Numbered from the stretch's first letter, positions 2,085-21,669 are shown. The stretch: DNA of 64,000 nucleotides from Syntrophaceae bacterium (GCA_003141195.1 PLLC01000024.1:26238-90237); one strand, 5' to 3'. Notes: a model not told the origin generated them from the sequence alone. A program made the numbers and translations.

Positions 2085-3413
2085 ATGGACCGTAAAATCA
2101 TCGAGAGGTTATCTCCAAGATCATGGACACCCAGGTTGATCGTATTGATGTCGATCACCCTGGTCTCCCTTTTGCTGATCTATCACTTCGTCCGACCCAT
2201 TCCCCCGAATACCTTGACCATGACCACCGGGATGGAGGGAGGGTCGTTCGTTGTTTTCGCCGAGCGGTATCGGCAAGTGCTGGCCCGCGACGGCATCCGG
2301 GTCAAATTGCTTCCCTCGTCGGGGGTCGTTGAGAACCTGCGGCTGTTGAACGACGAATCGCACGGGGTTGATGCGTCTTTCGCCCAGGGGGCGATCGACA
2401 AGGGTGAGATCGCATCAAATCTGGTGTCACTGGGCAGCCTCACCTACACCCCCCTGTGGGTCTTTTATCGGGGTGATGAAACCCTCGATGACCTGTCGCA
2501 ACTCAGAGGGAAGCGGATCGGCATCGGACCCAAGGGAAGCGGCATCCAAAAGCTCTCTCTAAACCTGCTCAGGACCGCCAACGCAGCCGATCCCCCTACG
2601 GTCTTGTACGAGTATCCCTACAACACCGCCATGGAGGCGATCATGGCGGGCAGGGTGGATGCGGTCATGGCGTTGGGTTCGGCCGACAGCCAGATGGTGA
2701 TGAAGCTGCTCCATGCCAATGGGATCAAACTAATGAACTTCAGCCAGGCCGAGGCCTATACACGGCATTTCCCGGCACTGTCGCATGTGATTCTGCCCCG
2801 GGGGGTTTTGAGCCTGCCGAAGCGGTTTCCCCCTTCGGACATCCACCTATTGTCCCCGACGGCAAACCTCATCGTCCGCAAGAGTCTGCATCCCGCCCTG
2901 ATATATCTGCTTTTGAAGGCCTCGATGGAGATCCACAGCGGCGCGGGATGGGTTCATAAGGCGGGGGAATTCCCCTCGCTCAACAAGCAGGACTACCCGG
3001 TCAGCGAGCAGGCCGAGCGGTTTTATAAGTCGGGCGGCTCGCTGCTCTATCACTACCTTCCCTTCTGGGCCGCCACGTTCATCGACCGGATGATCCTGGT
3101 CCTGATTCCCCTGGGAATCCTTCTGTTCCCCGTCATTGGAATCATGCCGCGGATCTACCTCTGGCGAAACCGGTCGAAGTACTACCGCTGGTACCGTGAA
3201 CTGAGCAATATCGAGAAAGAATTGCTGGAGCATCCGCAACCGGAAATGCTCCAGAGTTTTCGGGCGCATCTTGAACGGATCGAAAAGGCCGTCAGCGATA
3301 TCCGCGTCTCGGTTGGTTTTTATGATCAGGTGTTCACGCTCAAAGAGCACATCCAGATGGTAAGGCAGAAACTGCTCCGTTTGAAGCACGAATCTCCGGA
3401 TAAGTTCGATTAA
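2085..3413 (+). CDS. TAXI-family (TRAP-associated) solute-binding domain protein with N- and C-terminal membrane segments
   Basis: 442-aa ORF. N-terminal TM helix, then TTGMEGGSFVVFAERYRQVLARDGIRVKLLPSSGVVENLRLL, typical of TAXI binding proteins. C-terminal hydrophobic helix plus coiled-coil tail. No TRAP permease gene adjacent. Confidence 0.6.
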   Translation: MDRKIIERLSPRSWTPRLIVLMSITLVSLLLIYHFVRPIPPNTLTMTTGMEGGSFVVFAERYRQVLARDGIRVKLLPSSGVVENLRLLNDESHGVDASFAQGAIDKGEIASNLVSLGSLTYTPLWVFYRGDETLDDLSQLRGKRIGIGPKGSGIQKLSLNLLRTANAADPPTVLYEYPYNTAMEAIMAGRVDAVMALGSADSQMVMKLLHANGIKLMNFSQAEAYTRHFPALSHVILPRGVLSLPKRFPPSDIHLLSPTANLIVRKSLHPALIYLLLKASMEIHSGAGWVHKAGEFPSLNKQDYPVSEQAERFYKSGGSLLYHYLPFWAATFIDRMILVLIPLGILLFPVIGIMPRIYLWRNRSKYYRWYRELSNIEKELLEHPQPEMLQSFRAHLERIEKAVSDIRVSVGFYDQVFTLKEHIQMVRQKLLRLKHESPDKFD

Positions 3414-3738
3414 TTTTTTGGTTTCCGGGTCTGGCCCATCGACGCCGGCCTGCAGGTCAGGTCGCCCAAGCCCGGATGATCTCCCGTCATGCCGTTGCGC
3501 CGGATCCGGTTGAGGCCCCGCAGTGACGCCAAGACCTGCAGAACGGTCCTCTTTTGTCCCGGTTCGGGCATTTCCCCTCCTACCTGTCGTATCTCACGCC
3601 GCATCTATGCAGGGTGTGCCATGTCCGGATCACCCCCGGTTTTAAAGGATCTGAGGTGGGCATGCGGACGAAATGAATCAGATAACCAGCGGTTAGTCAA
3701 GGAGTTTTTCTACCGGCAACGCTCGAAGGTGGAGAAGT

Positions 3739-4629
3739 TCATCGAGGGGATGGATCGCTGTATTTCTTCCGGATCAGGGCCTCCACTTCACGGATGTCCC
3801 GCCGGAAAGGGCCTTCCGCATCCATTTTCAGACTGGTCAGGGCGGCCGCCCAAATTATGGCTTCCTGTGGAGGCGCGCTGAGCCTGCGGGCCATGTAGGA
3901 GGCGATGCATGTATCCCCCCGGCCGCTGCGGCCCGTCAGCGTTTCAGGATGGAACCGGGCTTCATGAAAACGGTCCCCATCGTATACGAGAACCCCATCC
4001 CGGTGGGTCAGCACCACCTCTTTCGGACCCAGGTCGGCGATTTGTCCGGCTGCAACCCGCATATCCTTCTGCCCCGTGAGGTATTCGGCCTCCACGGCAT
4101 CGGTCTTCACGGTATCCACTTTGCTCAGGACCTTTTCTTTTTCCGGCCAGTCCTGAAAAACCATTCGACCCTCGTGAACCACGCGGACAAATCCCTGTAG
4201 ATCAATGGCGATCATGGCGTCTTTCTTCCGCAGCTCTTCGATCACGGTGAGCGGCACCTCGCCGCGGACCGAGGCGCCGACGACAAAGACCCTTGAGGCG
4301 ATCCCCTTCACCTCTGCAATCGTAAAAGGCCCCGCCGAACTGGTGACGTACAGAATGCGGTCATCCACGTTGGATGTCGGATACTCGAGGCGGAGGCAGG
4401 TCGAGTTGGGGGTCACTTTGGCAAATACGGCGACTCCCAGCGCTTTCAGTTCGTCTGCAACCTTCACATCCTCCCGGGCCAGACGGGTTATCGCGGCTAC
4501 CTTCAGCCCCATCCGGACCGCCGCATGGGATCCGTAATTGAAAGCGCCGCCGTCGACGACCCTCAGGCCTTCCGCGGAAACGATGGTGTCCTTGGTGTAA
4601 TGCCCCAGAAAGGCGATGTCGTAAACCAT
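3739..4629 (-). CDS. PfkB-family carbohydrate kinase (paralog 1)
   Basis: 296 aa. N-terminal DIAFLGHYTKD and C-terminal TGRSGRGDTCIASY (PfkB GAGD-type motif). Paralogous to 5544-6416 (shared WP.KEK...V...K.D and GRSGRGDTC/GRTGRGDTC). Confidence 0.8.
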   Translation of the reverse strand: MVYDIAFLGHYTKDTIVSAEGLRVVDGGAFNYGSHAAVRMGLKVAAITRLAREDVKVADELKALGVAVFAKVTPNSTCLRLEYPTSNVDDRILYVTSSAGPFTIAEVKGIASRVFVVGASVRGEVPLTVIEELRKKDAMIAIDLQGFVRVVHEGRMVFQDWPEKEKVLSKVDTVKTDAVEAEYLTGQKDMRVAAGQIADLGPKEVVLTHRDGVLVYDGDRFHEARFHPETLTGRSGRGDTCIASYMARRLSAPPQEAIIWAAALTSLKMDAEGPFRRDIREVEALIRKKYSDPSPR

Positions 4630-4656
4630 ATCCGTTGATTTCCAAAAAACGGGAAT

Positions 4657-5469
4657 TTACAAAAATTTCCGGATGGCGTCGATCCCTTTCTGTGCGACTT
4701 CTTCCGGCGGGCGGAACCAATACGCCGGTCTGAACATTTCCAGGGAAACGGGTCCGTCATAATGGATATTCTTCAGGCCGGCAACAATCTCCGCAAGAGG
4801 GATCACCCCTTCCCCCGGAAACAGCCGATGGGCGTCCTGCAATTCCGCTTTCGGCAATTTTTCGGCATCATTCATATGCAGGATGAATATCTTTTCCGGA
4901 TCCACATCCCGGATGGCGCCAACGGACGATCCCCCGGCGTAAAAATGAAAGGTATCCAGAACCAACCCGATATTCTCCCGATTCACCGCCTTGACGATCG
5001 CAAAGTCCTCTTCCAGGGTCGAAACGGAACACCAGCGGAAACCCAGGAACTCAAATGCAAACCTGACCTTGTAATCCCGAAATCGATCCGAGATTTCCAG
5101 AAGAACCCTAATCGATTCATCGAAGACTTCTTTGTCGGTCGCGCCTTTGGGTTTGGGGCTCGGAACGACCACGATAAAGGGGCAACTTAGGTAATCCGCC
5201 ATCTTGGCGTATCGTGCAATCAGGTTTAGCGTATTCGCTTTTTCCCATGAGGCGTTGAACGTGATGAACTCGACGGAGTTGATCGCCAGCGGCTTTACAT
5301 GCGCTTCCGCCAACAGCGTTCGCAGATCGTCCAGGCTGTGATCCAGGAGGTAGGCCTCCATCTTTTTTGCCCAGATTTCAATAAGATCGTAGCCCGCAAG
5401 GGAGGCTACCCGGATGTCTCCGGGAAGATCCGTTTTCATGGTAGAGGCGCCGTTGAATCCGATTTTCAT
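4657..5469 (-). CDS. sugar phosphate isomerase/epimerase (xylose isomerase-like TIM barrel), paralog 1
   Basis: 270 aa with AAAGGAGAA RBS. Pattern DLIEIW...FAFEF...LVLDTFHF...ILHMNDA is typical of the AP endonuclease 2/xylose isomerase-like TIM-barrel family. Confidence 0.8.
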   Translation of the reverse strand: MKIGFNGASTMKTDLPGDIRVASLAGYDLIEIWAKKMEAYLLDHSLDDLRTLLAEAHVKPLAINSVEFITFNASWEKANTLNLIARYAKMADYLSCPFIVVVPSPKPKGATDKEVFDESIRVLLEISDRFRDYKVRFAFEFLGFRWCSVSTLEEDFAIVKAVNRENIGLVLDTFHFYAGGSSVGAIRDVDPEKIFILHMNDAEKLPKAELQDAHRLFPGEGVIPLAEIVAGLKNIHYDGPVSLEMFRPAYWFRPPEEVAQKGIDAIRKFL

Positions 5470-5543
5470 GGTTGTTCTCCTTTAAAGTCATTCGCCGCAT
5501 CGCGGCCGTCCTGCAAGCCCCTGACCCGACAAGACCGGGACGG

Positions 5544-6416
5544 TCAGCGGGGAAGTGTTTTCATCCGCGCCAAAACCTCTTCTCGTGTCCCCAGGAAGGG
5601 ACCCGGTTTTTCCATCTTGAGGCTGGTGAGGGCGGCCGCATATCGCAACGACTCCTCGATTCCATGGGTCCGTCTCCAGCACACATAGGAGATAAAACAG
5701 GTATCGCCTCTTCCCGTTCTCCCCGAAAGATTGTCCGGGTTGAAGGGGGCACGGAACATCTTTTCCCCATTGTAAAGGATGACCTCCGAGGAATGGGTGA
5801 TCATCACCTCTTTTGCACCCAGGCGATGTAGGATTCCGGCTGCCTCCTCCCGATCGGACGTTCCTGTGGCCACCTCCGATTCCAGAGAGTCCGCCTTTAG
5901 ATATGTGACCAGCGGCAGAAATTTCTCTTTGTCGGGCCAGTCTTTAAAGGCAAACGTGCCGGCTTCGCTATACCGGAGCTTGGCCTGCAGATCCAGGGCG
6001 ACCTCCCCTTTCCGGGCAAGGTGAACGATCAAGGAATCCGGAAACTCTCCGACGAAAAGCCCCGCCAGAGAATAGATCTTTGCCTCCGCCGGAATATCCG
6101 CGGGATGGAAAGGGTCGGCCTGGGAGAGCAGCCGGACCTTTCTTCGATCCACGTCATCCGTTTCGAAAACATTCTCGATCGATGTCGTCCTGAGGCTTGG
6201 GATGGCCGTAACCTCGATGCCGTCTTTTTTGAGGCCGTCCAGAATCCCAAAATCCTTTGGGGCCAGTTTTGTGATGACGCAGAATCGGACATCGGACCGT
6301 CTGGCGGCAAAGGCGGAGAAGTAGGCCCCTCCGCCGATAAAGCCCGAGGCCTCTCCCTTGTAAACCAGAATATCACTCGTCACATGGCCGATAATTATGA
6401 TGTCGTAAGGGGGCAT
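5544..6416 (-). CDS. PfkB-family carbohydrate kinase (paralog 2)
   Basis: ORF track gives 5544-6497. The homologous N-terminus MPPYDIIIIGHVTSD starts at the ATG at 6416. C-terminal GRTGRGDTCFISY motif. Confidence 0.8.
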   Translation of the reverse strand: MPPYDIIIIGHVTSDILVYKGEASGFIGGGAYFSAFAARRSDVRFCVITKLAPKDFGILDGLKKDGIEVTAIPSLRTTSIENVFETDDVDRRKVRLLSQADPFHPADIPAEAKIYSLAGLFVGEFPDSLIVHLARKGEVALDLQAKLRYSEAGTFAFKDWPDKEKFLPLVTYLKADSLESEVATGTSDREEAAGILHRLGAKEVMITHSSEVILYNGEKMFRAPFNPDNLSGRTGRGDTCFISYVCWRRTHGIEESLRYAAALTSLKMEKPGPFLGTREEVLARMKTLPR

Positions 6417-6495
6417 ACCTTTACCCTTTCCGGAGAGTTTCCTGGATTTTCCTCCCCATCCCTTTTGAAAGCCTTGAAAATCTACCCTCTTTGTC

Positions 6496-6558
6496 ATTCC
6501 CGCGAAAGCGGGAATCCAGAAGGTCTTGAAAGGACTGGATTCCTGCTTCCGCAGGAAT
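6496..6558. repeat. pair of REP-like perfect 8-bp hairpins (ATTCCCGC-gaaa-GCGGGAAT and ATTCCTGC-ttcc-GCAGGAAT)
   Basis: Hairpin 1 at 6496-6515 and hairpin 2 at 6539-6558, in the 189-nt spacer between the TIM-barrel gene and the PfkB gene. A related hairpin lies at 45819-45840. Confidence 0.8.
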
Positions 6559-6605
6559 GAAGATTTGCCAAGTTTCGGCAGAAATTCAAAGGTCGCATTT
6601 TGTTT

Positions 6606-7421
6606 TTATAAACCAAGCTTTCCGAAATATTCGATCGTCAATCTCAAGCACTCGTCCGAAGTGGGTTTCGGCAGAATTTCGGCGCAGATCGCCCCCCGGT
6701 ATTTGATCCTTCGCAATGCACGGACGATTTTTTTGAAATCGATGTGGCCGCACCCGGGCGCCCACCGGTTGCTGTCCGCAAAATGCACATGGGAGATGTA
6801 ATCCCTGACGCCAAGGATGCTCCCGATGATATCCGGCTCCTCGATGTTCATGTGAAAGGTGTCGATCAGCATCTTCAGGTTTGGCTTTCCGATCCGGTCG
6901 ATCACCTCTTTCGCGGAGGCCGTATCGTTATAAAGGCTCGTTTCATAGCGATTGAGGGGTTCGAGGATGAGCGTAACGGCGGGATTGTAGTCCAGGCATT
7001 CCACCATGCACTCCTGCACACGTTCCTCCGCCTGGTTCGGATCCGCTCCCGGCTTCACCGTGCCCCGGATCAAGCCGATCGTAACCCGCGGAATTCCCAG
7101 TCTGGAGGCGAGATCCATTTGATCCTGGATCCGCTGAACGGCCTTCCTGCGGATCACCGGATCCGGGTCCGCGAAACTCAACCCCTCTTCTCCATAGGCC
7201 TGCCCCGTCCCGATGGTCGGAACAGGCAGCCGGTATTGATGCAACAGACTTCCAATCTCATCCGCGTCGATCCCGTGCGGATCCCGGATGTGAAGTTCGA
7301 CGGCGTCATAGCCCAACTCGGCCACTTTTCGGATGCTGTCCCGGAAATTCTCCTTGACGGCAAGGGCCGAAAAACGGGCGCCCGGGGTCGAGATGGCGAT
7401 ACACTTCTGCATCACAGTCAA
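6606..7421 (-). CDS. sugar phosphate isomerase/epimerase (xylose isomerase-like TIM barrel), IolO-like candidate, paralog 2
   Basis: 271 aa. TTG at 7421, or more likely ATG at 7412 preceded by GAGGGA. Motifs YDAVELH, LILEPLNRYE, MLIDTFHMNIEE, HVHFADSNR are typical of the family. Confidence 0.8.
   Translation of the reverse strand: MTVMQKCIAISTPGARFSALAVKENFRDSIRKVAELGYDAVELHIRDPHGIDADEIGSLLHQYRLPVPTIGTGQAYGEEGLSFADPDPVIRRKAVQRIQDQMDLASRLGIPRVTIGLIRGTVKPGADPNQAEERVQECMVECLDYNPAVTLILEPLNRYETSLYNDTASAKEVIDRIGKPNLKMLIDTFHMNIEEPDIIGSILGVRDYISHVHFADSNRWAPGCGHIDFKKIVRALRRIKYRGAICAEILPKPTSDECLRLTIEYFGKLGL
6856..6914. repeat. in-gene master copy of the 59-bp repeat found at 1698-1756
   Basis: 58/59 identity to 1698-1756 (single A/G difference at 1720 versus 6878). 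Confidence 0.9.
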
Positions 7422-7428
7422 GGTCCCT

Positions 7429-8544
7429 CTAAAATCCGATCCTCGGCAACTCGTAGACCGATTTCCAGCCCTCGCTCATGGGCTCTCTCAGGAACGGTTC
7501 CATATCCTTGGCGGTTCGCAGCGTCGTCTCTTCGACCGGGGGCACTTTCCCGGCAGGGAAGGCTTCCAGGATCTGATCGTTCACCAGGGTCAGATACTGC
7601 AGGATCGCGACGATCGGTCTTTTGGCCTTGCGTGCGGTGGCCAGGCTTGGTTTCCCCACGACCCCCTGCGGCGTGGCGGCCCGCTCGATCGGGGATTGGC
7701 CCTCGCCTTCGGACCAGCGGTGGGGACGGCGGAAGGGATCGACCGACTTGTCAAAATGGCCGTCCGGCAAATAGCTCCTCCCCTCCGCATCCTGAACCAC
7801 GCTCATGTCCACCATCCCGGGCGGGAAGAGCAGCAGACCCACGGATGTTTCTGCCTCGTCGGCATGGATGAAATGCGAATCGAGACTCAGGTCGTCGTCG
7901 GTCGGATAGAAGAATTCACGCACCGCCCGGTGCCAATCCAACACCCGGAAAATACCGGGCAGATGATAACGCTTCATGAATTCCTGCAACGCCGCTTCCA
8001 GCATCCACAACTGACCGTGGTTGTTGATGATGATCTGCTTGCGGAAACCGTCGTTCCACAGTCCGAGCATGACATAGATCAACGTCTCCCGGACCACCTC
8101 TTCCGGCATGATCACCGTCCCGGCCATTCCCATATGATGATAGGGATGACCGCCGTAATTGAGCGGCGGCAACGCCAGGTTGATCGGCTTTCCCTGCTTT
8201 GCGGTATAGCGCCGCACGCCTTCGGCAATCTGGGTCACCATGAACGTATCCAGTCCGCTGACCGTATGAATCCCATGGTTCTCGGTGCATCCCACCGGAA
8301 TCAGGACGATATCGTTTTTCCGTCTGTTCCGGATCAGTTCGTTTCGGACCGTCGTCTGGATATAGGTTCCCGCTTTGCCCAGCTCCGGCGCCGCGGGGAT
8401 GCCGTAATCCGCGAGAATCCGGTCGATCTCCGCCTCCGGCGCATCCCAAAGTCTCTTCTTCAGATGCCCCACGGTATTGTCTTCGAAGATGATGGCCGGG
8501 TTCTTCGTCGTCAGCCACACCTTGTCCCTGGCTTTTTCCGTCAT
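7429..8544 (-). CDS. creatininase/formamide-hydrolase family protein (IolN-like hydrolase candidate)
   Basis: 371 aa with AAGGAGG RBS. DIVLIPVGCTENHGIH matches the creatininase-family metal-binding motif (PvGs.EqHG.HLP). Confidence 0.7.
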   Translation of the reverse strand: MTEKARDKVWLTTKNPAIIFEDNTVGHLKKRLWDAPEAEIDRILADYGIPAAPELGKAGTYIQTTVRNELIRNRRKNDIVLIPVGCTENHGIHTVSGLDTFMVTQIAEGVRRYTAKQGKPINLALPPLNYGGHPYHHMGMAGTVIMPEEVVRETLIYVMLGLWNDGFRKQIIINNHGQLWMLEAALQEFMKRYHLPGIFRVLDWHRAVREFFYPTDDDLSLDSHFIHADEAETSVGLLLFPPGMVDMSVVQDAEGRSYLPDGHFDKSVDPFRRPHRWSEGEGQSPIERAATPQGVVGKPSLATARKAKRPIVAILQYLTLVNDQILEAFPAGKVPPVEETTLRTAKDMEPFLREPMSEGWKSVYELPRIGF

Positions 8545-8562
8545 GTGGTCCTCCTTATAATC

Positions 8563-9765
8563 TCAAAATCCATCGGCTACGTATGTAATCTTGCAATCCG
8601 TGCGGTTGGTGCGGAGCTGAACGATTTGTTCGGCAATCGCTTCCAGCCCGACCTTCTTCGTGATCAGAGGGGTCATATCCATCCCCGCGGCCATGCATTC
8701 GATGACCCGCGGGAAGGTCCCGTACCCGGAATGTCCCTGGGCGCCGACGATTCGCGATTTCTTGACCTGCAATACCTCACCGGTCACCGGTATCTTTGCA
8801 TCGGCCCGGGCCACGATCACGACCGTGCATCCGATCGTCTTTCCCCTCCAGATCGCCTGTTCAATGCCCGGGTAGACCACGGCCGGCAGGCCTGTTGCCT
8901 CGACATAGAGGTTTGCCCCCATGCCGTCCGTATACTCCAGCACCTTTTCCGTAAAATCTTCCTTCAGCGGATTGATGATGAAATCGGCGCCCATCTTCCT
9001 GCCCATTTCCGCCCGCTCTCGAACGGTCTCGGACAGGATGACCCTGGCCGCTCCCGCACGTTTCAGAACGGCGGCGGCGCCCATACCGATGGGGCCGCTG
9101 CCGCAGATCACGACGTTATCGCCCGGCCGGATGCCGCCGCCGCACTCGATCACGGCGTTGTAGGCAACGGAGGTGGGTTCCACCAGGCTGCCGGCCAGGA
9201 AGAGATCTTTGCCGGAGTACCTTCTCTTCAGCGGAGCGAGGCTCCAGACAACCCTGGAAGGCACCACAAGATATTTTGTGTACCCCCCGTGAATGTTGAA
9301 ACCGATCTCATTGAGCTGTTCGCATTGATTCGGGTATCCGTCAGCGCAGGGTTTGCACTGGCCGCACCAGAACATCTCCTCCACGGTGACTTCTTCCCCG
9401 GCCTCAAAGGCCCTGTTCGTACGTTTATTGCGGGCGTTTTTCCCTGCCGTGACGACGACGCCTGCAATTTCATGCCCCATAATCGCGGGGAACCCGGTCA
9501 ATCCCGGGTACAGGATGTAACCATCCCGGTCGGCTTCCGCCATATGCACGTCGCTGCCGCAGATACCGCAGGCTTTGACTTCGATCAGAACCTCCTCGAT
9601 ACCGGGCTCCGGCACATCGTATTCCCGGATCTCCATCCGCGGATTCTTCCAGACCTTGCTCCCGAGATAGGTCTGCGTATGATCAACATCTTTCGGTCCC
9701 AATACGAAATCCGGTTTCGGCACCCAATCCGCTATCAGGGTGACCCCTCTCATCTTTTCTGCCAT
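8563..9765 (-). CDS. zinc-dependent (MDR) alcohol/polyol dehydrogenase, IolM-like candidate
   Basis: ATG at 9765 preceded by GGGAGG (track start GTG at 9768). GICGSDVH zinc motif, second Cys cluster CGQCKPCADGYPNQC, Rossmann motif VICGSGPIG. Confidence 0.8.
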   Translation of the reverse strand: MAEKMRGVTLIADWVPKPDFVLGPKDVDHTQTYLGSKVWKNPRMEIREYDVPEPGIEEVLIEVKACGICGSDVHMAEADRDGYILYPGLTGFPAIMGHEIAGVVVTAGKNARNKRTNRAFEAGEEVTVEEMFWCGQCKPCADGYPNQCEQLNEIGFNIHGGYTKYLVVPSRVVWSLAPLKRRYSGKDLFLAGSLVEPTSVAYNAVIECGGGIRPGDNVVICGSGPIGMGAAAVLKRAGAARVILSETVRERAEMGRKMGADFIINPLKEDFTEKVLEYTDGMGANLYVEATGLPAVVYPGIEQAIWRGKTIGCTVVIVARADAKIPVTGEVLQVKKSRIVGAQGHSGYGTFPRVIECMAAGMDMTPLITKKVGLEAIAEQIVQLRTNRTDCKITYVADGF

Positions 9766-9829
9766 CACAACATACCTCCCTTGATCATTTCAGGTGGAAC
9801 GTCCCCCCCCCCTTTGATAGAGGAATACA

Positions 9830-10840
9830 TCAATCCCGTTTTATTTTCACAAAGCGACCGCTCTTGATGGACTCCAGCGCGGCATAACCCATGGCCACCG
9901 AGATTTTTCCATCCAACCCACCGACGGAGGGAGTCTTGTTATCCATAACGCACGTGACAAACTCGCTCATCTCGGCAAGATATGCTTCCTGATATCGTTC
10001 CAGGAAGAAATGGAGAGGCTTGTCGCTTTGTATCGAGTCGGCATTGTGAATCGTGACCTCGGTCGGCGTCTTGTTCCCTACGGCAACCGAACCCCCGGAA
10101 CCAAAGATTTCGACTCTCTGATCATAGCCATAGACCGCCTGCCGGCTGTTGTCGATCGTCCCCAAAGCCCCGCTTTGAAATTTGAGCAGCACCACGGCGG
10201 TATCGACATCCCCGCACTGCCCGATTGCAGGATCGATCAGACAATGACCCGTCGCCATCAGCTCCGTGACCTCCTCGCCCAGGAGGAAGCGAGCCATGTC
10301 AAAGTCGTGAATCATCATATCCAAAAACAGTCCGCCCGAAATTTTGACATAGTCGAGCGGCGGGGGTTGCGGATCCCTGCTCGAGATCCGGAGCAACTGG
10401 GGAACGCCTATCTTTCCGGATTCAACCAGCCTCCTCGCCCTTTGAAAACCGGGATCAAAACGCCGATTGAAACCGACCTGCAGCTTCACTTCCGCTTTCC
10501 GAACCGCCGCCAGCGCCTCATCAATCTTGTCCATTTCCAGCGCGATCGGCTTTTCACAGAAAATATGCTTTCCGGCCATCGCCGCCTCAATCATGATCCG
10601 GGCATGGGTATCCGTAGAGGAACAGATCACCACGGCCTGAATGTCGTCATTCACAAGCAGGCGGCGATAATCTGTTTCGCAGACGGGGATTTCCAGTTCG
10701 TCGGCAACCTTTTGCGCGGACTCTGCGACGACATCCGCGACCGCCAGTAATTTTGCACCGGGGATTTGAAATTTTAAATTCCGGGCATGGATCCGGCCGA
10801 TCCTCCCTGTCCCGATGACCGCAATATTGACTCTTTTCAT
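9830..10840 (-). CDS. iolG: Gfo/Idh/MocA oxidoreductase, myo-inositol 2-dehydrogenase-like
   Basis: 336 aa with AGAGGAG RBS. N-terminal VNIAVIGTGRIGRIHARNL Rossmann fold, EKP motif (FCEKPIAL), overall IolG-like layout. Confidence 0.7.
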   Translation of the reverse strand: MKRVNIAVIGTGRIGRIHARNLKFQIPGAKLLAVADVVAESAQKVADELEIPVCETDYRRLLVNDDIQAVVICSSTDTHARIMIEAAMAGKHIFCEKPIALEMDKIDEALAAVRKAEVKLQVGFNRRFDPGFQRARRLVESGKIGVPQLLRISSRDPQPPPLDYVKISGGLFLDMMIHDFDMARFLLGEEVTELMATGHCLIDPAIGQCGDVDTAVVLLKFQSGALGTIDNSRQAVYGYDQRVEIFGSGGSVAVGNKTPTEVTIHNADSIQSDKPLHFFLERYQEAYLAEMSEFVTCVMDNKTPSVGGLDGKISVAMGYAALESIKSGRFVKIKRD

Positions 10841-10896
10841 TACTCGCTCCTCTTTTCTCGTCTACATCATTCCGTCCGCTCGGTCAAGCCTTCGAG

Positions 10897-10936
10897 ACGG
10901 TATGCTGTTACGACGTCCAGGCATACCGTTTTTTTT
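10897..10936 (+). terminator. intrinsic-terminator-like hairpin oriented on the plus strand (9-bp stem ACGGTATGC/GCATACCGT followed by T8)
   Basis: Left arm 10897-10905, right arm 10921-10929, T run through 10936. Sits between two minus-strand genes, so the U-tract is on the non-coding orientation. Confidence 0.5.
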
Positions 10937-10942
10937 CGCTGT

Positions 10943-12046
10943 CTATGTAGGAAGAATATGAATCCGCTCCGGGTTGATCCGGAAGGAAACGTCCTTATTG
11001 TTCAGTTCTTCATTACCCGGATCGAAGATATCTACAATAAATTCCATTCCGAGCGATTCTATCCAATAGCGGACGCTCGATCCCTCGAAAATCGAATTGA
11101 CCACTCTTCCCCGAAAAACATTCTCCCCATTCCCCTGACCGCGCAAGGCGCTTTCAAGACGAATGGTTTCCGGTCGAACGCAGAGGGTTATATCGTCGCC
11201 GGGCTTGTAGGTCCTCTCCGCTTCTTTATCAGCGGGCACGACCAGCACCGGTTCCCCTCCGACCGAAACAAGGATGGTTCTCGATGAAGAGCTCGCAACC
11301 TTGCCCTTCATGAGGTTCACGATGCCGACAAAGGACGCGACAAAGGTATTTCTTGGACGATAATAGATCTCGAAAGGGGACCCATATTGAACGATTTTTC
11401 CCTCGTTCATGACCGCGATCCGGTCGGACAACGACAGCGCCTCGGCTTGGTCGTGAGTGACGTAGATTGTCGTAATCTTCAGCCGCCTTTGGAGCTGTCT
11501 TAGCTCAGCCCGAATATTTATTCTGAGCTTTGCATCGAGATTCGAGAGCGGTTCGTCGAGAAGAAGGATTTCGGGTTCCATGACGAGCGCCCGCGCGAGC
11601 GCGACCCGCTGCTGTTGACCGCCGCTGATCTGACCGGGAGTGCGATCGAGAAGAGCTTCAATCCCAAGATATCCAATCGTTTTTTGAAGCCTTTTTTCGA
11701 TATCCTCCCGCGTCATCTTCTGGATTCGGAGTCCGTAGGTGATATTTTCCCGAATCGTCATATGGGGAAACAGGGCATAGTCCTGAAAGACCATAACGGC
11801 GTTCCGGAGGTGGGAGGGAACATCGTTGATCAACCTGTCTCCCATGTAAAGATTCCCGTGCTCCACTTCATAGAACCCCGCGATCATTCTCAGCAGGGTC
11901 GTTTTTCCGCATCCCGATGGTCCAAGAAAGGTCGTAAAACTTCCCCGCGCAATATCGAGCGACACCGAATCGAGGGCCTTCGTTTTTCCGAAGGTTTTAT
12001 GGACATTTTCAATTCTCAAATGTATTTCATTCATGGCCATAGACAT
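10943..12046 (-). CDS. ABC transporter ATP-binding protein (importer 1)
   Basis: 367 aa. Walker A GPSGCGKTT, signature LSGGQQQRVALARAL, Walker B LLLDEPLSNLD, C-terminal TOBE-like domain. Alternative starts at 12040 and 12034. Confidence 0.9.
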   Translation of the reverse strand: MSMAMNEIHLRIENVHKTFGKTKALDSVSLDIARGSFTTFLGPSGCGKTTLLRMIAGFYEVEHGNLYMGDRLINDVPSHLRNAVMVFQDYALFPHMTIRENITYGLRIQKMTREDIEKRLQKTIGYLGIEALLDRTPGQISGGQQQRVALARALVMEPEILLLDEPLSNLDAKLRINIRAELRQLQRRLKITTIYVTHDQAEALSLSDRIAVMNEGKIVQYGSPFEIYYRPRNTFVASFVGIVNLMKGKVASSSSRTILVSVGGEPVLVVPADKEAERTYKPGDDITLCVRPETIRLESALRGQGNGENVFRGRVVNSIFEGSSVRYWIESLGMEFIVDIFDPGNEELNNKDVSFRINPERIHILPT

Positions 12047-12055
12047 CCTTCGAGA

Positions 12056-13666
12056 CTAGACCTTAAAGAGTTCGAACCTTTTTCCAAGCGCGAGTTTCGC
12101 GATTCCCAAAACCAGAAAAGCAATGATAAGAAGCGAACAGGTCAACGCGGCCGCCTTTCCATAGAAACCGTCGCTCACGAGATTCATGATGCTGAAGGTG
12201 GCTACGACATTCTTGGAAGTCGCAAGGAATACGATGACGCTCAAGGTCGTGATCGCCCGGATGAAAGAGACGATAAACGCGGAAAAGAAGGGCCCTTTGA
12301 TGAGAGGGATCTCGATTTCCTTGAAGATCCTCATGCTGCTTGCACCGAGATTACTTGCGGCCTCATGGAACGACGGGGAGATTTGCTGGAACGCGCCGAT
12401 TCCCGTTTGATATCCCATCGCGATATTCCAGAACATCAGACTCAAAATGATGATCGCGGCAGTGCCGTGCAAGTCGACCGGAGGGCGCGTAAAGGCTATG
12501 GAATACCCGATTCCGAGAAATATCCCCGGCAGAGCGGTGGGAAGGATGCATGTAAAGTCCACGAATCGTCGCAGGAAAAATTTCTTTCGCGAGACGAGGT
12601 ATGCGGCGACCATGGAAAACAGTGCGCTGCCACCCCCCGCGAGGAGCGAAAAGACGAGACTGTTTGTGACCTCCGTGGACCTCGAAAAGATTTCCCGGAC
12701 ATAGCGCAGGGTAGGAGTCCAGTCGAATCCCCATCCATTGACGAAGGCGCCCATGAACAGCGCAAGATACACGAGAAGGATGAGCAGTGAAAACACGGAG
12801 CAGAAAGCGAACAAGAACCATCTCATAAAGCTGCCTATTCTCCGGATATCGATCTGCGTGCTCTTCCCTGTAATCGTCACGTAGGACTTTTTCCCGACCC
12901 AGAGGCGCTGGAAAAGAAAGATGGAAAAGGAAGGGACCAAGAGAACAAGCGATAAGATGGCGGCGCCGGAGACGTCGGCCCATCCCTCGATCCTCATCCA
13001 TGCCTCCGTCGCGACCACCGAGAAATCGCCGGAAATCATAATCGGGTTCCCGAAATCGGCCAAGACCTGAATCGAAACAAGAAGGGCCGCCCCGGCGACT
13101 CCCGGCCGGGCAAGAGGAAAGGTGATCGTTTTGAAAAGGGTAAATCCCGTCGCTCCAAGGTTCCTCCCGGCATATTCGAGGCTCGGCGGAATCGATTGCA
13201 GGACCCCTTCCATCATAAGGGCCGCGATGGGAAAGAAGGCTATCGTCTGAGCAAGCCAGAGGCCGTGCCACCCAAAAATGTTGACGGACAACCCCAGCAG
13301 CTTCGCCGTGATGATTCCATTTTTCCCAAACATCATGATGTAGCTGAAAGCCACCATGAACGGAGGGGAGAACAGGGGAAGGAGGCTGATCAGCTTGAAA
13401 TATTTTCTCAGCGGAACATCCGTCCTGGCGATGGTATACGCAAAAACGAAACCGACGAAAGCGGAGGAGCTCGTCGACAAGACGACCATGAACAGGCTGT
13501 TGAAAATCGCTTTGATGTACCGGGGGTGCGAAAGGACGGTGATCAATTCTTTCCCGCTTGGATACAGGAAAACCCTGACAATCGGGTAGATGACGAATAG
13601 AAAGAGACACGAGATGATAAAGAGCATCACAACAGCAAGAAAGGGTTCCTTCGCAATGCGCTTCAT
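12056..13666 (-). CDS. ABC transporter permease, fused two-domain (FbpB/ThiP-like), importer 1
   Basis: 536 aa, about 12 hydrophobic segments, two BPD-transport (EAA-loop) repeats (LEYAGRNLGATGF..., FHEAASNLGASSMRIF...). Confidence 0.85.
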   Translation of the reverse strand: MKRIAKEPFLAVVMLFIISCLFLFVIYPIVRVFLYPSGKELITVLSHPRYIKAIFNSLFMVVLSTSSSAFVGFVFAYTIARTDVPLRKYFKLISLLPLFSPPFMVAFSYIMMFGKNGIITAKLLGLSVNIFGWHGLWLAQTIAFFPIAALMMEGVLQSIPPSLEYAGRNLGATGFTLFKTITFPLARPGVAGAALLVSIQVLADFGNPIMISGDFSVVATEAWMRIEGWADVSGAAILSLVLLVPSFSIFLFQRLWVGKKSYVTITGKSTQIDIRRIGSFMRWFLFAFCSVFSLLILLVYLALFMGAFVNGWGFDWTPTLRYVREIFSRSTEVTNSLVFSLLAGGGSALFSMVAAYLVSRKKFFLRRFVDFTCILPTALPGIFLGIGYSIAFTRPPVDLHGTAAIIILSLMFWNIAMGYQTGIGAFQQISPSFHEAASNLGASSMRIFKEIEIPLIKGPFFSAFIVSFIRAITTLSVIVFLATSKNVVATFSIMNLVSDGFYGKAAALTCSLLIIAFLVLGIAKLALGKRFELFKV

Positions 13667-13749
13667 GGATCTTTCCTAAATGATCATCGTTCAGGGTCGA
13701 TTTGATAAGCGGGCCGCGGGGCCCGCTATCTTTTACATATCCGCTATCT

Positions 13750-14781
13750 TTACATACCCGTTATCGACGCCCATTCCTTTTTCCACTTGTCCACGTTCTC
13801 GTCGGCCTTTTTCAGGTCCCAGGGAGCGAGCTTGACTTGTTCGAACGGGGGAACTCCCGCAGGCAATTCAACACCCCCCCGAACAGGGTACCGGTATCCG
13901 TTTCTGGCGTTGATCTTGCCTGCCGCCGGAGAGAGAAGGAAATCGAGAAATTTCTTCGCGGCTTCCGCATGAGGAGCCCCTTTCAAAACCGATGCCCCTC
14001 CGATTTCAAAGCCGGTATCCTTCGGAAAAACGACGACGATTGGAAGATTTCCCTGCATTTTCTGTTTAAGGGTATCGTGTCCCCATGCAAACCCTACGAT
14101 CGCTTCGCCTTGGGAAACAAGAGGTATGGATCCGTTCGCCCCTTTCGTATATTGAGCGACGTTCGGGTGAAGCTTTCTGATATAATCGAACCCGGCCCGT
14201 TCGCTTCCGAGCCGGAAGATCTGCGCCGCCATCATGAGATAGGCGCCACCGGTCGTAGCGGGATTGGATGCTATGACCCGTCCCTTGTATGCCGGATCGA
14301 GAAGATCGTCCCATGTCGTTGGGGGCTTGAGCCCCAACGGTTTTATCTTTTCGTTGTAGAGTTTCTCATTATACAAAAGACAGAGAGCTCCGAGGTACCA
14401 ACCGGTCCAATAACCGTCCGGGTCCATCAGGTTCGGATTGATACCGGCCTCTTTTATGACGGGAGATGTGTATTTTTGAAGGAAACCGCCGCGTGCCAGG
14501 TCGGAATGAAAATTTGAGTTTCCTCCGATTAACACATCCGCCCGCGGATTCGAGGCTTCGGTTTTAATGCGGGCGGCCACTGTCCCCGCCTGCTCGATCT
14601 GGAGAGCGATTTCAGCTGTAAATCCCGTTGCTTCCTTGAATGCCGCCGCTAACTCGCTTGTGGTCTTTTCATCGAGCGCAGCATAAATGACAACCTTCTT
14701 TTCCGCCGTTTCTCCCTGCCCCGCTCCGAACGCGCTCATAGCGATCAGAAACACAAGCAGCACCAAGAGCATCTTCTTCAT
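13750..14781 (-). CDS. ABC transporter periplasmic substrate-binding protein (family 1, Fbp/PotD-like), importer 1
   Basis: 343 aa with GAGGAGGGAG RBS and a signal peptide MKKMLLVLLVFLIAMSAFG. Paralogous to 18952-19959. Confidence 0.85.
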   Translation of the reverse strand: MKKMLLVLLVFLIAMSAFGAGQGETAEKKVVIYAALDEKTTSELAAAFKEATGFTAEIALQIEQAGTVAARIKTEASNPRADVLIGGNSNFHSDLARGGFLQKYTSPVIKEAGINPNLMDPDGYWTGWYLGALCLLYNEKLYNEKIKPLGLKPPTTWDDLLDPAYKGRVIASNPATTGGAYLMMAAQIFRLGSERAGFDYIRKLHPNVAQYTKGANGSIPLVSQGEAIVGFAWGHDTLKQKMQGNLPIVVVFPKDTGFEIGGASVLKGAPHAEAAKKFLDFLLSPAAGKINARNGYRYPVRGGVELPAGVPPFEQVKLAPWDLKKADENVDKWKKEWASITGM

Positions 14782-14852
14782 TTTACTCCCTCCTCATTCT
14801 TGATAAACTACCTGCTATTGACTTCTCGGCCCCGGAGGACCGAGAAACACCC

Positions 14853-15854
14853 TCAACACCCGCAGGAGTGTCGTATCTGCAGTTTTGTCGACAAGATGAT
14901 CCGAGATTCCAGTGCCCGTCCCCCTTCTATAATCTGGATGAGGTTTCCCACCGCCAGGTCCCCGATAGCGTGCATCGGTTGCTGAACGGTTGTAAGTGAA
15001 GGCTGAAGATATTCCGCGAAGAAATTATCGTCGAAACCCGTGATGGCAATGTCTTCCGGCACCCTCATGCCGATATCCTGGCAATACCTCATAACTCCGA
15101 GAGCCATGTGATCATTCGCCGCAAACACGACATCGGCCCTCTCGGTTTCAAGAAAGGTCCGCATCGCTTCGTATCCTGATTGACGAGAAAAATCGCCTCG
15201 AACGACAACGACATTCGCCGGGTCGATTCCTTGTTCACTCAATCCAATCTTGAATCCGTAAATCCGATCCTGGGAATCTAAACTTTCTTCGGGTCCCGTA
15301 ATGAAGAGGATTCTTTGAAAACCGTGCATCGCATAATGTTTGGCCATGAGTCGCGCGCCGCCGATGTTGTCGATGAGTATTGACGGGTGATCGTCGCTGA
15401 ACGGAGGCTTCCCGATGATAATATACGGGATCTTTCTTTTCTTGAGGCGGTTCAGAAATTCCAAGTCGAAAGAGGACGATCCCGCAAAGCGAAGAAGGAA
15501 GGCATCGACTCTCCGGCCTTCAATAAGATCGATGAGCGCTCTCTTCGTATTTCGCGTTTTGATAATGAGATTGTATCCCTTCTCTTCCGCCGCGGCATCC
15601 GCCCCCGCAATCAAAGCAGTATAATACTCCCTCACGACGTCCGGCAGAAGAATCGCGATCGTTCTTGAGTTGCCGCCGGAGAGAGCCCTTGCCATGAGGT
15701 TCGGCGTGTACCCGAGTTCCTGTACCGCCTTTTCGACTTTTTCGGCCGTGGAGGGCTTCACGATACCTTCTCGGTTGATGACCCGAGAGACCGTCGCCCG
15801 TGAGAATCCGCATTTTTCCGCGACAACATCTATCGTTATCTTTTGCATATTCAT
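14853..15854 (-). CDS. LacI-family transcriptional regulator
   Basis: 333 aa. N-terminal HTH TIDVVAEKCGFSRATVSRVIN followed by a periplasmic-binding-protein-like sugar-binding domain. Confidence 0.9.
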   Translation of the reverse strand: MNMQKITIDVVAEKCGFSRATVSRVINREGIVKPSTAEKVEKAVQELGYTPNLMARALSGGNSRTIAILLPDVVREYYTALIAGADAAAEEKGYNLIIKTRNTKRALIDLIEGRRVDAFLLRFAGSSSFDLEFLNRLKKRKIPYIIIGKPPFSDDHPSILIDNIGGARLMAKHYAMHGFQRILFITGPEESLDSQDRIYGFKIGLSEQGIDPANVVVVRGDFSRQSGYEAMRTFLETERADVVFAANDHMALGVMRYCQDIGMRVPEDIAITGFDDNFFAEYLQPSLTTVQQPMHAIGDLAVGNLIQIIEGGRALESRIILSTKLQIRHSCGC

Positions 15855-15867
15855 CCATGATTCAATT

Positions 15868-15881
15868 TGTAAACGCTTACA
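15868..15881. promoter_or_regulatory. LacI/CcpA-type palindromic operator TGTAAACGCTTACA
   Basis: Fits TGWAANCGNTNWCA. Lies 14-27 nt upstream of the LacI-family gene start (15854) on the minus-strand side. I saw no other copy in the window. Confidence 0.6.
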
Positions 15882-16058
15882 TTATGAATCATCCAATTCC
15901 CGTAGTCAAGCTTTTTTTTGGTATTCTAAGCTCCGAGTGAAACCCCTGAAGAAGCTTGAACGTTTTCAAAGCGGATTTCTAACGACCGTAGTATGAGCGC
16001 CCCCTCTCTCGAATCGGGGGGAGGAGAAGGGATCGGCGGAATGTTCCATATCTCAATC

Positions 16059-17141
16059 TCACGCCTTGATCAAATAAATATTCCTCAAATCAAAATTGAG
16101 GCACACCCGGTCACCCGTACGGAAGATGCCTGTCTTCAGCGGATTGGAAACCTGGATGGTAAAGACCTGACCCTCTGCGGTCACCTCGTAGTTCACTTCG
16201 GATCCCAGATAGGTGACCAGGGTCACCTCTCCGTTGCAGACCCCTTCCTGAGCGGACAGTTCGATCATCTCCGGCCGGATGACAAGGGTTACGGCATCCC
16301 CCTTCTTGAGATGAGGATACCTCTCAAAAGAGAATCTTCGGTTCCAGAATTCCACCTCCTGTCTTCCGTCGACACTTTCCAGGACATTGCCGGTCATAAA
16401 ATTCGTCTGTTTACCGATAAAATCGGCCACAAATTTCGTCCTCGGCCTTGAATAAATCTCCTCGGGCGTTCCGACCTGCTCGATTTCTCCCCGGTTCATC
16501 ACCACGATTCGATCGGAGAGGGTCATTGCCTCTTCCTGGTCGTGGGTGACATAGATGGATGTGATATTGGATTCCTGCTGAATTTTCCGGATGAAGATGC
16601 GCATCTTGATCCGCAGCTTGGCATCCAGATTGGAGAGCGGTTCGTCGAACAACAGCACCTTCGGTTCGTTGACCATCGCCCGGGCCAGGGCCACCCTCTG
16701 TTGCTGGCCGCCGGACAACTGGGCCACGGGCCGGTTCCCCAAACCGGCCAGGCCGACGAATTCAAGAATTTTCTCCACCCTCTTCCTGATCTCTCCCGTT
16801 GCAAGATCCCTGAATTCCAATCCGAAGGCCACATTTTTATAGATATTCATATGTGGGAAGAGGGCATAGCTCTGAAACACCATGCAGGTATCCCTTTTAT
16901 TGGCGGGGATGTCGTTGATCTTCACATCATCGAGATGAATATCGCCGGTGGTCGGGTTTTCAAAGCCGCCGATCATCCGTAAGATCGTCGTCTTGCCGCA
17001 GCCGGAAGGGCCGAGAAGCGTCAGGAACTCTCCCCGTTTCATTTCGAGGTTGAAATTCTTGACGGCGATCACCTTTTCATCCTGGTACGCACTGAGAAAC
17101 TCTTTCGTGAGATTCTTGATTTGCAAATAGGCCTGATTCAT
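16059..17141 (-). CDS. ABC transporter ATP-binding protein (importer 2)
   Basis: 360 aa. GPSGCGKTT, LSGGQQQRVALARAM, LLFDEPLSNLD. Paralog of 10943-12046. Confidence 0.9.
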   Translation of the reverse strand: MNQAYLQIKNLTKEFLSAYQDEKVIAVKNFNLEMKRGEFLTLLGPSGCGKTTILRMIGGFENPTTGDIHLDDVKINDIPANKRDTCMVFQSYALFPHMNIYKNVAFGLEFRDLATGEIRKRVEKILEFVGLAGLGNRPVAQLSGGQQQRVALARAMVNEPKVLLFDEPLSNLDAKLRIKMRIFIRKIQQESNITSIYVTHDQEEAMTLSDRIVVMNRGEIEQVGTPEEIYSRPRTKFVADFIGKQTNFMTGNVLESVDGRQEVEFWNRRFSFERYPHLKKGDAVTLVIRPEMIELSAQEGVCNGEVTLVTYLGSEVNYEVTAEGQVFTIQVSNPLKTGIFRTGDRVCLNFDLRNIYLIKA

Positions 17142-17165
17142 GCTGTGGCGGCTCCCCTGAATGGA

Positions 17166-18932: not shown

Positions 18933-18951
18933 TCCCCTCCCTTCTCTTAGG

Positions 18952-19959: not shown

Positions 19960-20695
19960 GATTTTTCCCCCTTATGATTTCTCAAAGTCCATGGACCGCC
20001 ATTGGAATTCCCTCTTTTTTGACCGCACGGCAGGCCGATTCGGCCAATCTGCCAGCAAACGAAGACGATTTCACCGCCTTCACCCGTCAAGACCCCTGCC
20101 CAACCACACTGAATTTATCTTCCCGAAGGACGACCGCGCGTTCCAAGCCGGATAACAGAATGGTCAAAAATGTCATATGACCCTTTGCAAGCGGATGGCC
20201 TTCAGCCTGTTCCCTGTTCCGCCGGGTCGGAAATTCCGGAAGTGCTTGAATATGCGGAGATGTCTGTTCGAGAGGAGAACAACGGGCGGAGAATCCCTGA
20301 AAGGGCGCCTTCAAACAGAATTCTTGAGGTCAACATTGTTGTTGCCATACCTGCGAAGTTGATCAACATTCGTCGACAAGAAACTCTCGCAAGTCCAGAT
20401 TCTCACAAAAGTCAGGCGGAAAGAGAAATCTTAATCAAATCGTAGAAAATCAAACTCCTTACATGATCTTCAATGAAAACCAAATGCTGCATAGCACGTG
20501 TATAGGACCCCTGTAAAAAAGTCAACCGGTATTTTGATTTATGGTTTTGCCGAATGAGCTTAGATTTTTTGGGGGCTGATTGACCGAATACACGCTGATC
20601 CGGCCTTCGACGTTCAACCGAGTGACTATTTTCTGGAAAAGCAGGGGTCCAGTCTCCCCCAGTTCCTCCCTGTCAGCACCACTTGCTAATTGTCC

Positions 20696-20724: not shown

Positions 20725-20764
20725 AGAACGCAGATGATCAATCCCTCAGGGAGGTAAAAATATC

Positions 20765-21646: not shown

Positions 21647-21669
21647 GAGAGGTCCTCAGGACGGAATCG

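Follow-up and report, generated by a model that had tools for sequence, protein, structure and literature searches.

A probable cyclitol operon with a Thermotoga-type inositol core, two pyrophosphate-signature kinases and AfuABC-like importers in a Syntrophaceae bacterium

In Thermotoga maritima, a gene for a PfkB-family kinase, TM0415 or IolK, lies inside the inositol catabolic operon, and the role of this pyrophosphate (PPi)-dependent enzyme has been open since 2013-2018. What might kinases of this type do next to an inositol pathway? The question arises at a locus of a Syntrophaceae bacterium (GCA_003141195.1 PLLC01000024.1:26238-90237), a 64-kb stretch of DNA that we call the window and to whose full length all coordinates refer. 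The minus strand of this window contains two predicted PPi-dependent kinase genes, together with genes for a Thermotoga-type inositol route and for ATP-binding cassette (ABC) importers resembling AfuABC. Taken as a whole, 3739-15909 is best explained as one operon, under the control of LacI, that serves to break down cyclitols by the Thermotoga-type route, which we consider probable. The gene identities and the PPi-type assignment of the kinases, taken jointly, are held with high confidence. The core pathway and the kinase family are already known; what is new is the combination of two kinase subfamilies, an IolI-like isomerase and AfuABC-like importers. At least one related species has the same combination. 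The operon and its relatives give a concrete, testable hypothesis for the role of TM0415/IolK.

The catabolic core and its downstream genes

Membership in the IolG, IolM, IolN and IolO families was judged by the whole-protein score against the curated equivalog cut-off of each NCBIfam model. Details of the pathway were drawn from PMC5931981, PMC12632266 and PMC3750489 as well as from the NCBIfam models. All four proteins score above their cut-offs: IolG at 465.4 bits (TIGR04380, cut-off 355), IolM at 491.5 bits (NF041097, cut-off 450; the next family, Tdh, gives 173), IolN at 300.1 bits (NF041098, cut-off 245) and IolO at 334.9 bits (NF041099, cut-off 300). The closest solved relative of IolO is TM_0416 (2zvr; E value 9.9e-55, with the runner-up at 1e-25). 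For IolG it is 3ezy (E 2e-107 to 1.6e-106), which we take to be T. maritima TM0414, followed by inositol 2-dehydrogenases. By contrast, the models of the canonical route score far below their cut-offs. That for IolC (TIGR04382, cut-off 300) gives 21-22 bits on both kinases of the locus and that for IolE (TIGR04379, cut-off 290) gives 19-26 bits on both of its TIM barrels. An initial annotation of this DNA had read the four-family core as the Thermotoga-type route rather than the IolBCDEJ route, and these scores bear it out. It had also placed IolN in the creatininase family, which is confirmed by the match to PF02633 (E 2.9e-40), and the minus-strand positions that it gave for the genes are correct to within a few codons. 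Judged by these models, the assignment of IolG-M-N-O as a Thermotoga-type core is right.

With the chemistry published for T. maritima, the intermediates of which are listed in PMC5931981, IolG would convert myo-inositol to scyllo-inosose and IolM would convert scyllo-inosose to diketo-inositol. IolN would then open the ring to give 5-keto-L-gluconate, and IolO, described as a 5-keto-L-gluconate 4-epimerase in PMC12632266, would yield D-tagaturonate. This product would be handed to enzymes of hexuronate and 2-keto-3-deoxygluconate (KDG) metabolism that are encoded elsewhere. Among the scanned open reading frames (ORFs) of the window we found no UxaA-, UxaB-, UxuA-, UxuB-, UxaE-, KdgK- or KdgA-like genes. 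The initial annotation had likewise seen no UxaB, UxaA or KdgA and had concluded that the downstream part of the route differs from the described pathway in an unexplained way. The observation stands and the conclusion does not. T. maritima has uxaE in a pectin locus and kdgA-kdgK-uxuB-uxuA as a separate operon (PMC3750489), so the absence of these genes does not set the locus apart from the described pathway. In five related loci a gene for the tagaturonate epimerase UxaE (PF16257, E 1e-152) stands directly after IolO, and this fits the Thermotoga continuation of the route.

The iol operon of T. maritima, TM0411-TM0416, reportedly encodes IolR, IolM, IolN, IolG, IolK (TM0415) and IolO. The locus described here shares with it the four catabolic enzymes, a TM0415-type PfkB kinase and the location of the downstream hexuronate/KDG genes outside the cluster. 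It differs in having a LacI-family regulator where T. maritima has IolR of the ROK family, and AfuABC-like systems with a fused permease where T. maritima uses InoEFGK for uptake. An IolI-like isomerase and a kinase of a second subfamily are encoded here in addition. The host also differs, being a mesophilic bacterium from a peat/fen metagenome (GCA_003170455.1). With the canonical IolABCDEGJ pathway of the Bacillus subtilis type the locus has in common the first step by IolG and the IolI-like isomerase, whereas it encodes no IolE, IolD, IolB, IolC, IolJ or IolA.

Two pyrophosphate-signature kinases and an IolI-like barrel

Beyond the four core enzymes, the locus encodes two PfkB kinases, which we call KinA and KinB, and a second TIM barrel. 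The order kinase-barrel-kinase-barrel is as the initial annotation described it, and the kinases are indeed paralogous (38% identity, E 4e-61). Its further claim of alternating duplicated modules did not hold up. In the corresponding scenario, a recent tandem duplication of a kinase plus a barrel would have produced a novel downstream branch that replaces UxaB/UxaA/KdgA, in keeping with the gene order and with the hexuronate genes not found in the window. We regard this as highly implausible. The barrels come from different families, the second being an IolI homologue and not a copy of IolO, and they align at only 28% identity across 94 residues (E 2e-6). The kinases, at 38% identity, belong to two old subfamilies that co-occur in several phyla. 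With TM0415 inside TM0411-TM0416, a PfkB kinase is part of the known cluster. The downstream genes of T. maritima are also located elsewhere, and UxaE follows IolO in the five related loci.

The best PDB match of KinA is TM0415 (1vk4, E 1.1e-49), and those of KinB are the TM0415 variants 7e4l, 1vk4 and 5ysp (E about 1e-48 to 1e-50). The published determinants of PPi as phosphate donor are K171, F221, R229, R232 and M266 plus an RxGRGD motif (PMC5931981). When aligned to TM0415, KinA and KinB each have five of the five determinants and the motif. The catalytic Asp is likewise present in both, as are D11, Q141 and R145, which contact inositol. KinA, about 39% identical to TM0415 (PDB 1vk4, 5ysp/5ysq), retains D11, I76, N78, L116, Q141 and R145 in its acceptor pocket and has V for S89; its N-terminus is uncertain and its activity is predicted. 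The pocket of KinB is not of the TM0415 type, with L76, L78, L89 and S116. Its substitutions N78L, S89L and L116S are those published for homolog No. 49 from Levilinea saccharolytica, and the equivalence of KinB with No. 49 rests on them; the full PPi signature is a further shared feature.

Several properties of these enzymes have been reported. TM0415 makes inositol 1-phosphate, Ins(1)P, using PPi and not ATP or ADP (Nagata et al., PMC5931981). Its Km for myo-inositol is 12 mM and the authors doubt that this is the physiological reaction, suggesting pathway intermediates as possible genuine acceptors (PMC5931981). With myo-inositol, No. 49 is specific for PPi and yields several monophosphates, among which Ins(1)P is absent, and in the authors' view myo-inositol is not its genuine substrate (PMC5931981). 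When 14 acceptors including KDG were screened on the homologues, only myo-inositol was active, with No. 49 and No. 7, and two of the four assayed homologues with the signature had no detectable activity on the acceptors tried (PMC5931981). T. maritima does not grow on inositol (PMC3750489).

We scanned 185,579 species genomes for the kinase signature, which gave at least 566 loci, and analysed the best 80, those most like KinB. These KinB-type loci span Acidobacteriota, Anaerolineae, Atribacterota, Ignavibacteria, KSB1, Opitutales, Spirochaetales and others. All 80 of these closest genomic relatives of KinB have, at the successive pocket positions, L/M/I/V, L/I, L/I/V/M and S/T. A kinase of the N78 type is paired with one of the L78 type in 10 of the 80 loci, in several phyla. 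KinA and KinB thus appear to represent two long-diverged subfamilies of PPi-dependent inositol kinases and not a duplicated module. Each would interconvert inositol plus PPi and inositol monophosphate plus inorganic phosphate (Pi), probably at different ring positions. We also considered KDG kinase and canonical IolC as identities for the kinases, and both were rejected in view of the scores and the pocket residues; the KdgK model NF041332 gives 32.5 bits on KinB against a cut-off of 440 and has no match on KinA. A third PfkB type without the PPi signature occurs along with the KinB-type kinase in six loci (L008, L009, L011, L032, L039 and L040). It has an ATP-like A-P-A-V at the R229/R232 positions and adjoins IolG in L032, L039 and L040.

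The second barrel aligns over its full length with B. subtilis IolI (1i60; E 1.4e-52, residues 1-261 of 270). The positions aligned to IolI E142, D174, H200 and E246, which we take to be the metal ligands of the 1i60 structure, are all conserved, and the JGI name for the protein is 2-keto-myo-inositol isomerase. The function of IolI as an inosose isomerase is described in PMC3176187. By homology to the B. subtilis protein, the predicted isomerase would feed D-chiro-inositol into IolG-M-N-O. Its gene sits here in a Thermotoga-type operon and not in one of the IolBCDEJ type.

Importers, kinase neighbourhoods and the entry of substrate

The operon has genes for one AfuABC-like importer, and those for another lie just upstream. 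The closest solved relatives of their binding proteins, SBP1 and SBP2, are AfuA (4r72-4r75), P5PA (6wce) and 8x1a at E values of 1e-34 to 1e-65, and iron binders give E values of at least 1e-23. For SBP1 the best are P5PA (6wce, 1.3e-40) and AfuA (4r72, 1.1e-37), and for SBP2 they are 8x1a (3.8e-65) and AfuA (4r72, 5.7e-55). AfuA binds glucose 6-phosphate, fructose 6-phosphate and sedoheptulose 7-phosphate; its ring-binding residues H205, D206 and E229 are essential and its phosphate-contacting residues have been termed redundant (PMC4546632). The three ring-binding residues are conserved in SBP1, SBP2 and 10 of 10 kinase-linked homologues. P5PA, a pyridoxal phosphate (PLP) binder, has lost two of them (D206A, E229A). 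Of the phosphate-contacting residues, S37 is A in SBP1 and SBP2 alike, and T150 is G in SBP1 but retained in SBP2; SBP2-type proteins have a conserved Glu two residues past position 37. Since the sugar-ring residues are conserved and the phosphate-side ones are not, the ligand of SBP1 and SBP2 is most likely a polyol ring, which may or may not bear a phosphate. The systems thus resemble AfuABC (AfuA PDB 4r72-4r75; Sit et al. 2015) in H205, D206 and E229 and in consisting of a binding protein, a fused double permease and an ATPase, and differ from it at S37 and T150 and in a context of cyclitol catabolism, not hexose phosphate uptake.

SBP2 is 31% identical to SBP1, the Pfam families of the second importer match those of the first, and SBP2-type systems adjoin KinB- or KinA-type kinases in other lineages. 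The second importer is probably associated with the operon. Might both importers instead be iron, thiamine, phosphonate or vitamin B6 systems that merely adjoin the iol genes? The JGI label for SBP1 is iron(III) transport protein and the best NCBIfam models for the importer are PhnS2/T2/U2. The genes pdxS and pdxT adjoin the second system, and the close relative P5PA binds PLP. We nonetheless consider this very improbable. All of the NCBIfam matches are below their cut-offs, and AfuA and P5PA, which bind sugar phosphate and PLP, match far better than true iron binders. Both binding proteins have the D206 and E229 that the PLP binder lacks. Only short gaps separate the genes for SBP1, its permease and its ATPase from one another and from lacI and iolG on either side, and the same adjacency of kinase and importer is seen in Atribacterota, Spirochaetales, Anaerolineae and gut metagenomes. 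Labels of 'iron(III) ABC transporter' on these binding proteins are probably wrong, and a probable correction of such "iron transporter" annotations is of secondary value here. For the second importer, a role in vitamin B6 uptake is unlikely because SBP2 retains the D206 and E229 that P5PA has lost. The pdxS (SOR_SNZ, E 4e-107) and pdxT (SNO) genes are at 20765-22350 on the plus strand, divergent beside SBP2. A third SBP_bac_6 protein of the window (54797-55972, minus strand) was considered as a further component and rejected; its identity to SBP2 is 21%, the HD motif is missing and no permease or ATPase gene is adjacent. About 5 kb from this gene is one for a protein of the histidine phosphatase superfamily (His_Phos_1; 60684-61334, plus strand, E 5e-59), with no operon link established.

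Kinase genes of the KinB type have recurrent transporter neighbours in the 80 loci. An organophosphate:Pi antiporter of the major facilitator superfamily is encoded directly upstream of the kinase in 32 of them, on the same strand and with a median gap of about 30 nt. It was assigned to the GlpT/UhpT family by matches to TIGR00881, UhpC and GlpT (E 1e-66 to 1e-80). These antiporters retain GlpT R45 in 30 of 30 cases, R269 in 29 of 30, K80 in 28 of 30 and H165 in 27 of 30, residues that we take to bind substrate in GlpT. Another 11 loci have an AfuABC-like system and 10 have a PiT transporter, which has a DUF47 partner in nine of the 10 and lies 1-39 nt from the kinase in nine of the 10. The three transporter types are mutually exclusive and combined account for 53 of the 80 loci. 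A separate sugar ABC system of the RbsB/RbsC type is present in 14 of the 32 antiporter loci. IolM, IolN or IolO is encoded in 30 of the 80, a metallophosphoesterase just after the kinase in 10, and a beta-propeller phytase (PF02333, E 7e-47) with a TonB-dependent receptor in five, for example L073 and L023. L073 contains a sugar ABC system, a medium-chain dehydrogenase/reductase (MDR), two antiporters, the kinase, the phytase and the receptor.

KinA-type kinases were sampled in 80 loci from metagenome contigs. They adjoin AfuABC-like systems in 13-16 of these loci, including human gut metagenome contigs, and an antiporter in one locus only. When neighbours in the 80 loci were clustered, only unrelated genes recurred beyond the AfuABC-like and LacI genes, for example those for a metallo-beta-lactamase, MgtC and an alanine symporter.

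Three groups of loci from this survey have features of their own. In the first, a gene for an MDR dehydrogenase of about 355 aa stands just upstream of the antiporter (L055:7487-8569, L070:6715-7773, L073:5822-6892), and an antiporter-linked one is also found in L066, L067, L078, L084 and L085. The protein is related to IolM at 170-186 bits against the cut-off of 450. Dehydrogenase, antiporter, kinase and phosphoesterase recur as a module in many antiporter-kinase loci, and this module might act on phosphorylated cyclitols. The KinB-type loci linked to PiT (PHO4), which are L014, L016, L028, L045, L062, L069, L071, L074, L077 and L081, are mostly labelled Anaerolineae/Chloroflexi; most have a DUF47/PhoU_div gene and none has iolN or iolO within 7 kb. 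Human gut metagenome contigs L125-L130, L136 and L137 carry KinA-type kinases with the PPi signature. In L126-L128 and L130 the kinase is beside an AfuABC-like importer whose binding protein shares 41% identity with SBP2, and iol genes could not be recognised within 7-10 kb.

The presence of these kinases beside phosphate-ester transporters and phytases in many bacteria suggests that the operons feed on inositol phosphates. We offer tentatively, as one possible account, that the two AfuABC-like importers would bring in inositol monophosphates and that the kinases would run in the PPi-forming direction, converting inositol monophosphate and Pi to inositol and PPi. Free inositol would go to IolG and the energy of the phosphoester would be conserved as PPi. 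In other lineages a GlpT/UhpT-family antiporter would do the importer's job, often with a TonB-dependent receptor and a secreted phytase. The differing pockets of KinA and KinB would cover different isomers of inositol monophosphate. In its full form, as an energy-conserving entry route for environmental inositol phosphates with physiologically reversed kinases of complementary positional specificity, the proposal is a little more tentative still. We put it forward because it is the sole reading that places every gene in one pathway and because it accounts both for the presence of phytases and for the close coupling of the kinase genes to sugar-phosphate transporters from two unrelated classes. 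It also fits the 12 mM Km of TM0415, the doubt of the authors who measured it and the lack of growth of T. maritima on inositol. On general bioenergetic grounds, the reaction is expected to be near equilibrium at cellular Pi/PPi ratios, as that of PPi-phosphofructokinase is.

Some observations weigh against this proposal. We infer the direction of the kinases and the ligand of the binding proteins only from genomic context. The changes at S37 and T150 and the conserved Glu would also fit an unphosphorylated cyclitol as ligand, and no organophosphate antiporter, phytase or inositol monophosphatase is encoded in the window. The sub-threshold IolM-like dehydrogenase and the metallophosphoesterase that flank some antiporter-kinase pairs leave room for a route via phosphorylated intermediates. 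The candidate promoter and operator described below are consensus matches only. InoEFGK of T. maritima is an ordinary sugar-type ABC system. It is paired with TM0415 (PMC3750489).

As the main alternative, the kinases could run forward. AfuA-like importers with a pocket adapted to an unphosphorylated cyclitol would bring in free inositol, and PPi would serve to phosphorylate it. The product would be a trapped form of the substrate, a supply for the biosynthesis of inositol lipids or solutes, or the start of an unknown route of phosphorylated cyclitols. The only activity measured in the family is the forward one (PMC5931981), SBP1 and SBP2 depart from AfuA at the phosphate-side residues, stand-alone modules of importer and kinase have no iol genes within 7-10 kb, and the extra IolM-like MDR dehydrogenase is tied to the antiporter-kinase pair in several loci. 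Even so, we find forward kinases rather doubtful. Substrate would be drawn off from IolG-M-N-O, and the locus has no gene for an enzyme that would use up inositol phosphate; moreover, the Km of TM0415 for inositol is 12 mM. The tight pairing of the kinases, within operons, with organophosphate:Pi antiporters whose phosphate-binding arginines are retained would be left unexplained, as would the separate sugar-type ABC system of 14 antiporter loci and the phytases of some. A further idea is that intermediates or end products of the pathway are the true acceptors of one or both kinases, and a PPi-using KDG kinase would close the route. Nagata et al. raise pathway intermediates (PMC5931981), a PPi-utilising KDG kinase, LguH, acts downstream of a 5-keto-L-gluconate epimerase in Luteolibacter (PMC12632266), and here the kinase genes come straight after iolO. 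This idea is improbable in our view. LguH is annotated as a member of the KdgK family (PMC12632266), whereas KdgK-type models reach 32 bits against 440 here, and both kinases conserve the inositol contacts D11, Q141 and R145. KDG was among the 14 acceptors of the published screen, in which only myo-inositol was active with No. 49 and No. 7, and many kinase loci have a transporter and no IolM, IolN or IolO nearby.

If the proposal of inositol-phosphate entry with reversed kinases is true, it assigns a physiological role to TM0415/IolK and defines a widespread class of loci for the use of phytate and inositol phosphates. In soils and peat, a major part of the organic phosphorus is in the form of inositol phosphates. 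The DNA comes from a fen/peat metagenome, and a bacterial catabolic route dedicated to these compounds would matter for the cycling of carbon and phosphorus. A literature search found no earlier link of PPi-dependent inositol kinases, or of AfuA-like or organophosphate:Pi antiporter-type transporters, to inositol phosphates or phytate, which is not proof of absence.

Layout of the predicted operon and other features of the window

Eleven genes are packed tightly on the minus strand from 15,909 down to 3,739, with intergenic gaps of mostly 7-108 nt (Table 1). On contigs with identical DNA, the public gene calls point to later starts, and hence shorter proteins, for KinA (290 aa, start at about 6416) and IolO (268 aa, start at about 7412).

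Table 1. Features of the predicted operon and of the importer upstream of it, in coordinates of the window
Feature	Position	Strand	Basis or remark
LacI-family transcriptional regulator	14853-15854	-	PF00356 (LacI) E 2.2e-14, PF13377 E 2.1e-35
SBP1, periplasmic binding protein, AfuA-like	13750-14781	-	SBP_bac_6 family
Fused two-domain ABC permease, AfuB/FbpB-type architecture	12056-13666	-	two BPD_transp_1 stretches; best NCBIfam match PhnU2-like, 250 bits, below cut-off
ABC ATPase with TOBE_2 domain	10943-12046	-	PF00005, PF08402; 365 aa in public gene call
IolG, inositol 2-dehydrogenase, GFO/IDH/MocA family	9830-10840	-	TIGR04380
IolM, scyllo-inosose 3-dehydrogenase, Zn MDR family	8563-9768	-	NF041097; public call of 400 aa is 8563-9765
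IolN, 3-dehydro-scyllo-inosose (diketo-inositol) hydrolase, creatininase family	7429-8544	-	NF041098, PF02633
IolO, 5-keto-L-gluconate epimerase (gives D-tagaturonate), xylose-isomerase-like TIM barrel	6606-7421	-	NF041099
KinA, PfkB, predicted TM0415-type (N78-type) pyrophosphate-signature inositol kinase	5544-6497	-	likely true start about 6416
IolI-like predicted inosose isomerase, second TIM barrel	4657-5469	-	1i60 alignment
KinB, PfkB, L78/L89/S116-type pyrophosphate-signature kinase	3739-4629	-	TM0415-variant structures
Second AfuABC-like importer, probably associated	16059-19959	-	SBP2 18952-19959, fused permease 17166-18932, ATPase 16059-17141
Candidate sigma-70-like promoter TTGACT-17-CATAAT, upstream of lacI-family gene	15881-15909	-	consensus match only
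Candidate LacI-type operator, palindrome TGTAAGCGTTTACA	15868-15881	.	abuts the -10 box; consensus match only

The candidate promoter is the top promoter-like site on the minus strand of 3300-20800 and matches the consensus at 10 of 12 positions; the total count of sigma-70-like sites in this region is not above the shuffle expectation. The palindrome TGTAAGCGTTTACA has one copy in the window, and its matches with 3 mismatches elsewhere are at chance level. A search of the window for a further operator copy upstream of the second importer gave only such chance-level matches. The pattern TGTAANCGNTTACA also adjoins kinase genes in L072 and L096.

DNA identical to this locus occurs on at least 24 public contigs, including the NCBI metagenome-assembled genome (MAG) GCA_003170455.1 (PMZF01000180.1) and JGI and ENA metagenome assemblies. 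The same gene order, with 71-87% protein identity, is found in L006, the nearest species representative, a MAG labelled "uncultured delta proteobacterium".

A plus-strand ORF of 844 aa over iolM and iolN (7333-9867) is an antisense artefact of G+C-rich sequence, and the neighbourhood analysis grouped comparable antisense ORFs from different loci. The segment 56000-58000 has a G+C content of 0.46, compared with 0.55-0.65 elsewhere in the window, and may be a recent acquisition; three ORFs there (56398-57186, 57318-58133 and 58219-58959) have no Pfam match. Near the start of the window, long ORFs at 210-1571 on the plus strand and 180-1529 on the minus strand overlap almost fully. Neither has a Pfam match, and public gene calls choose the plus-strand ORF, of 453 aa.

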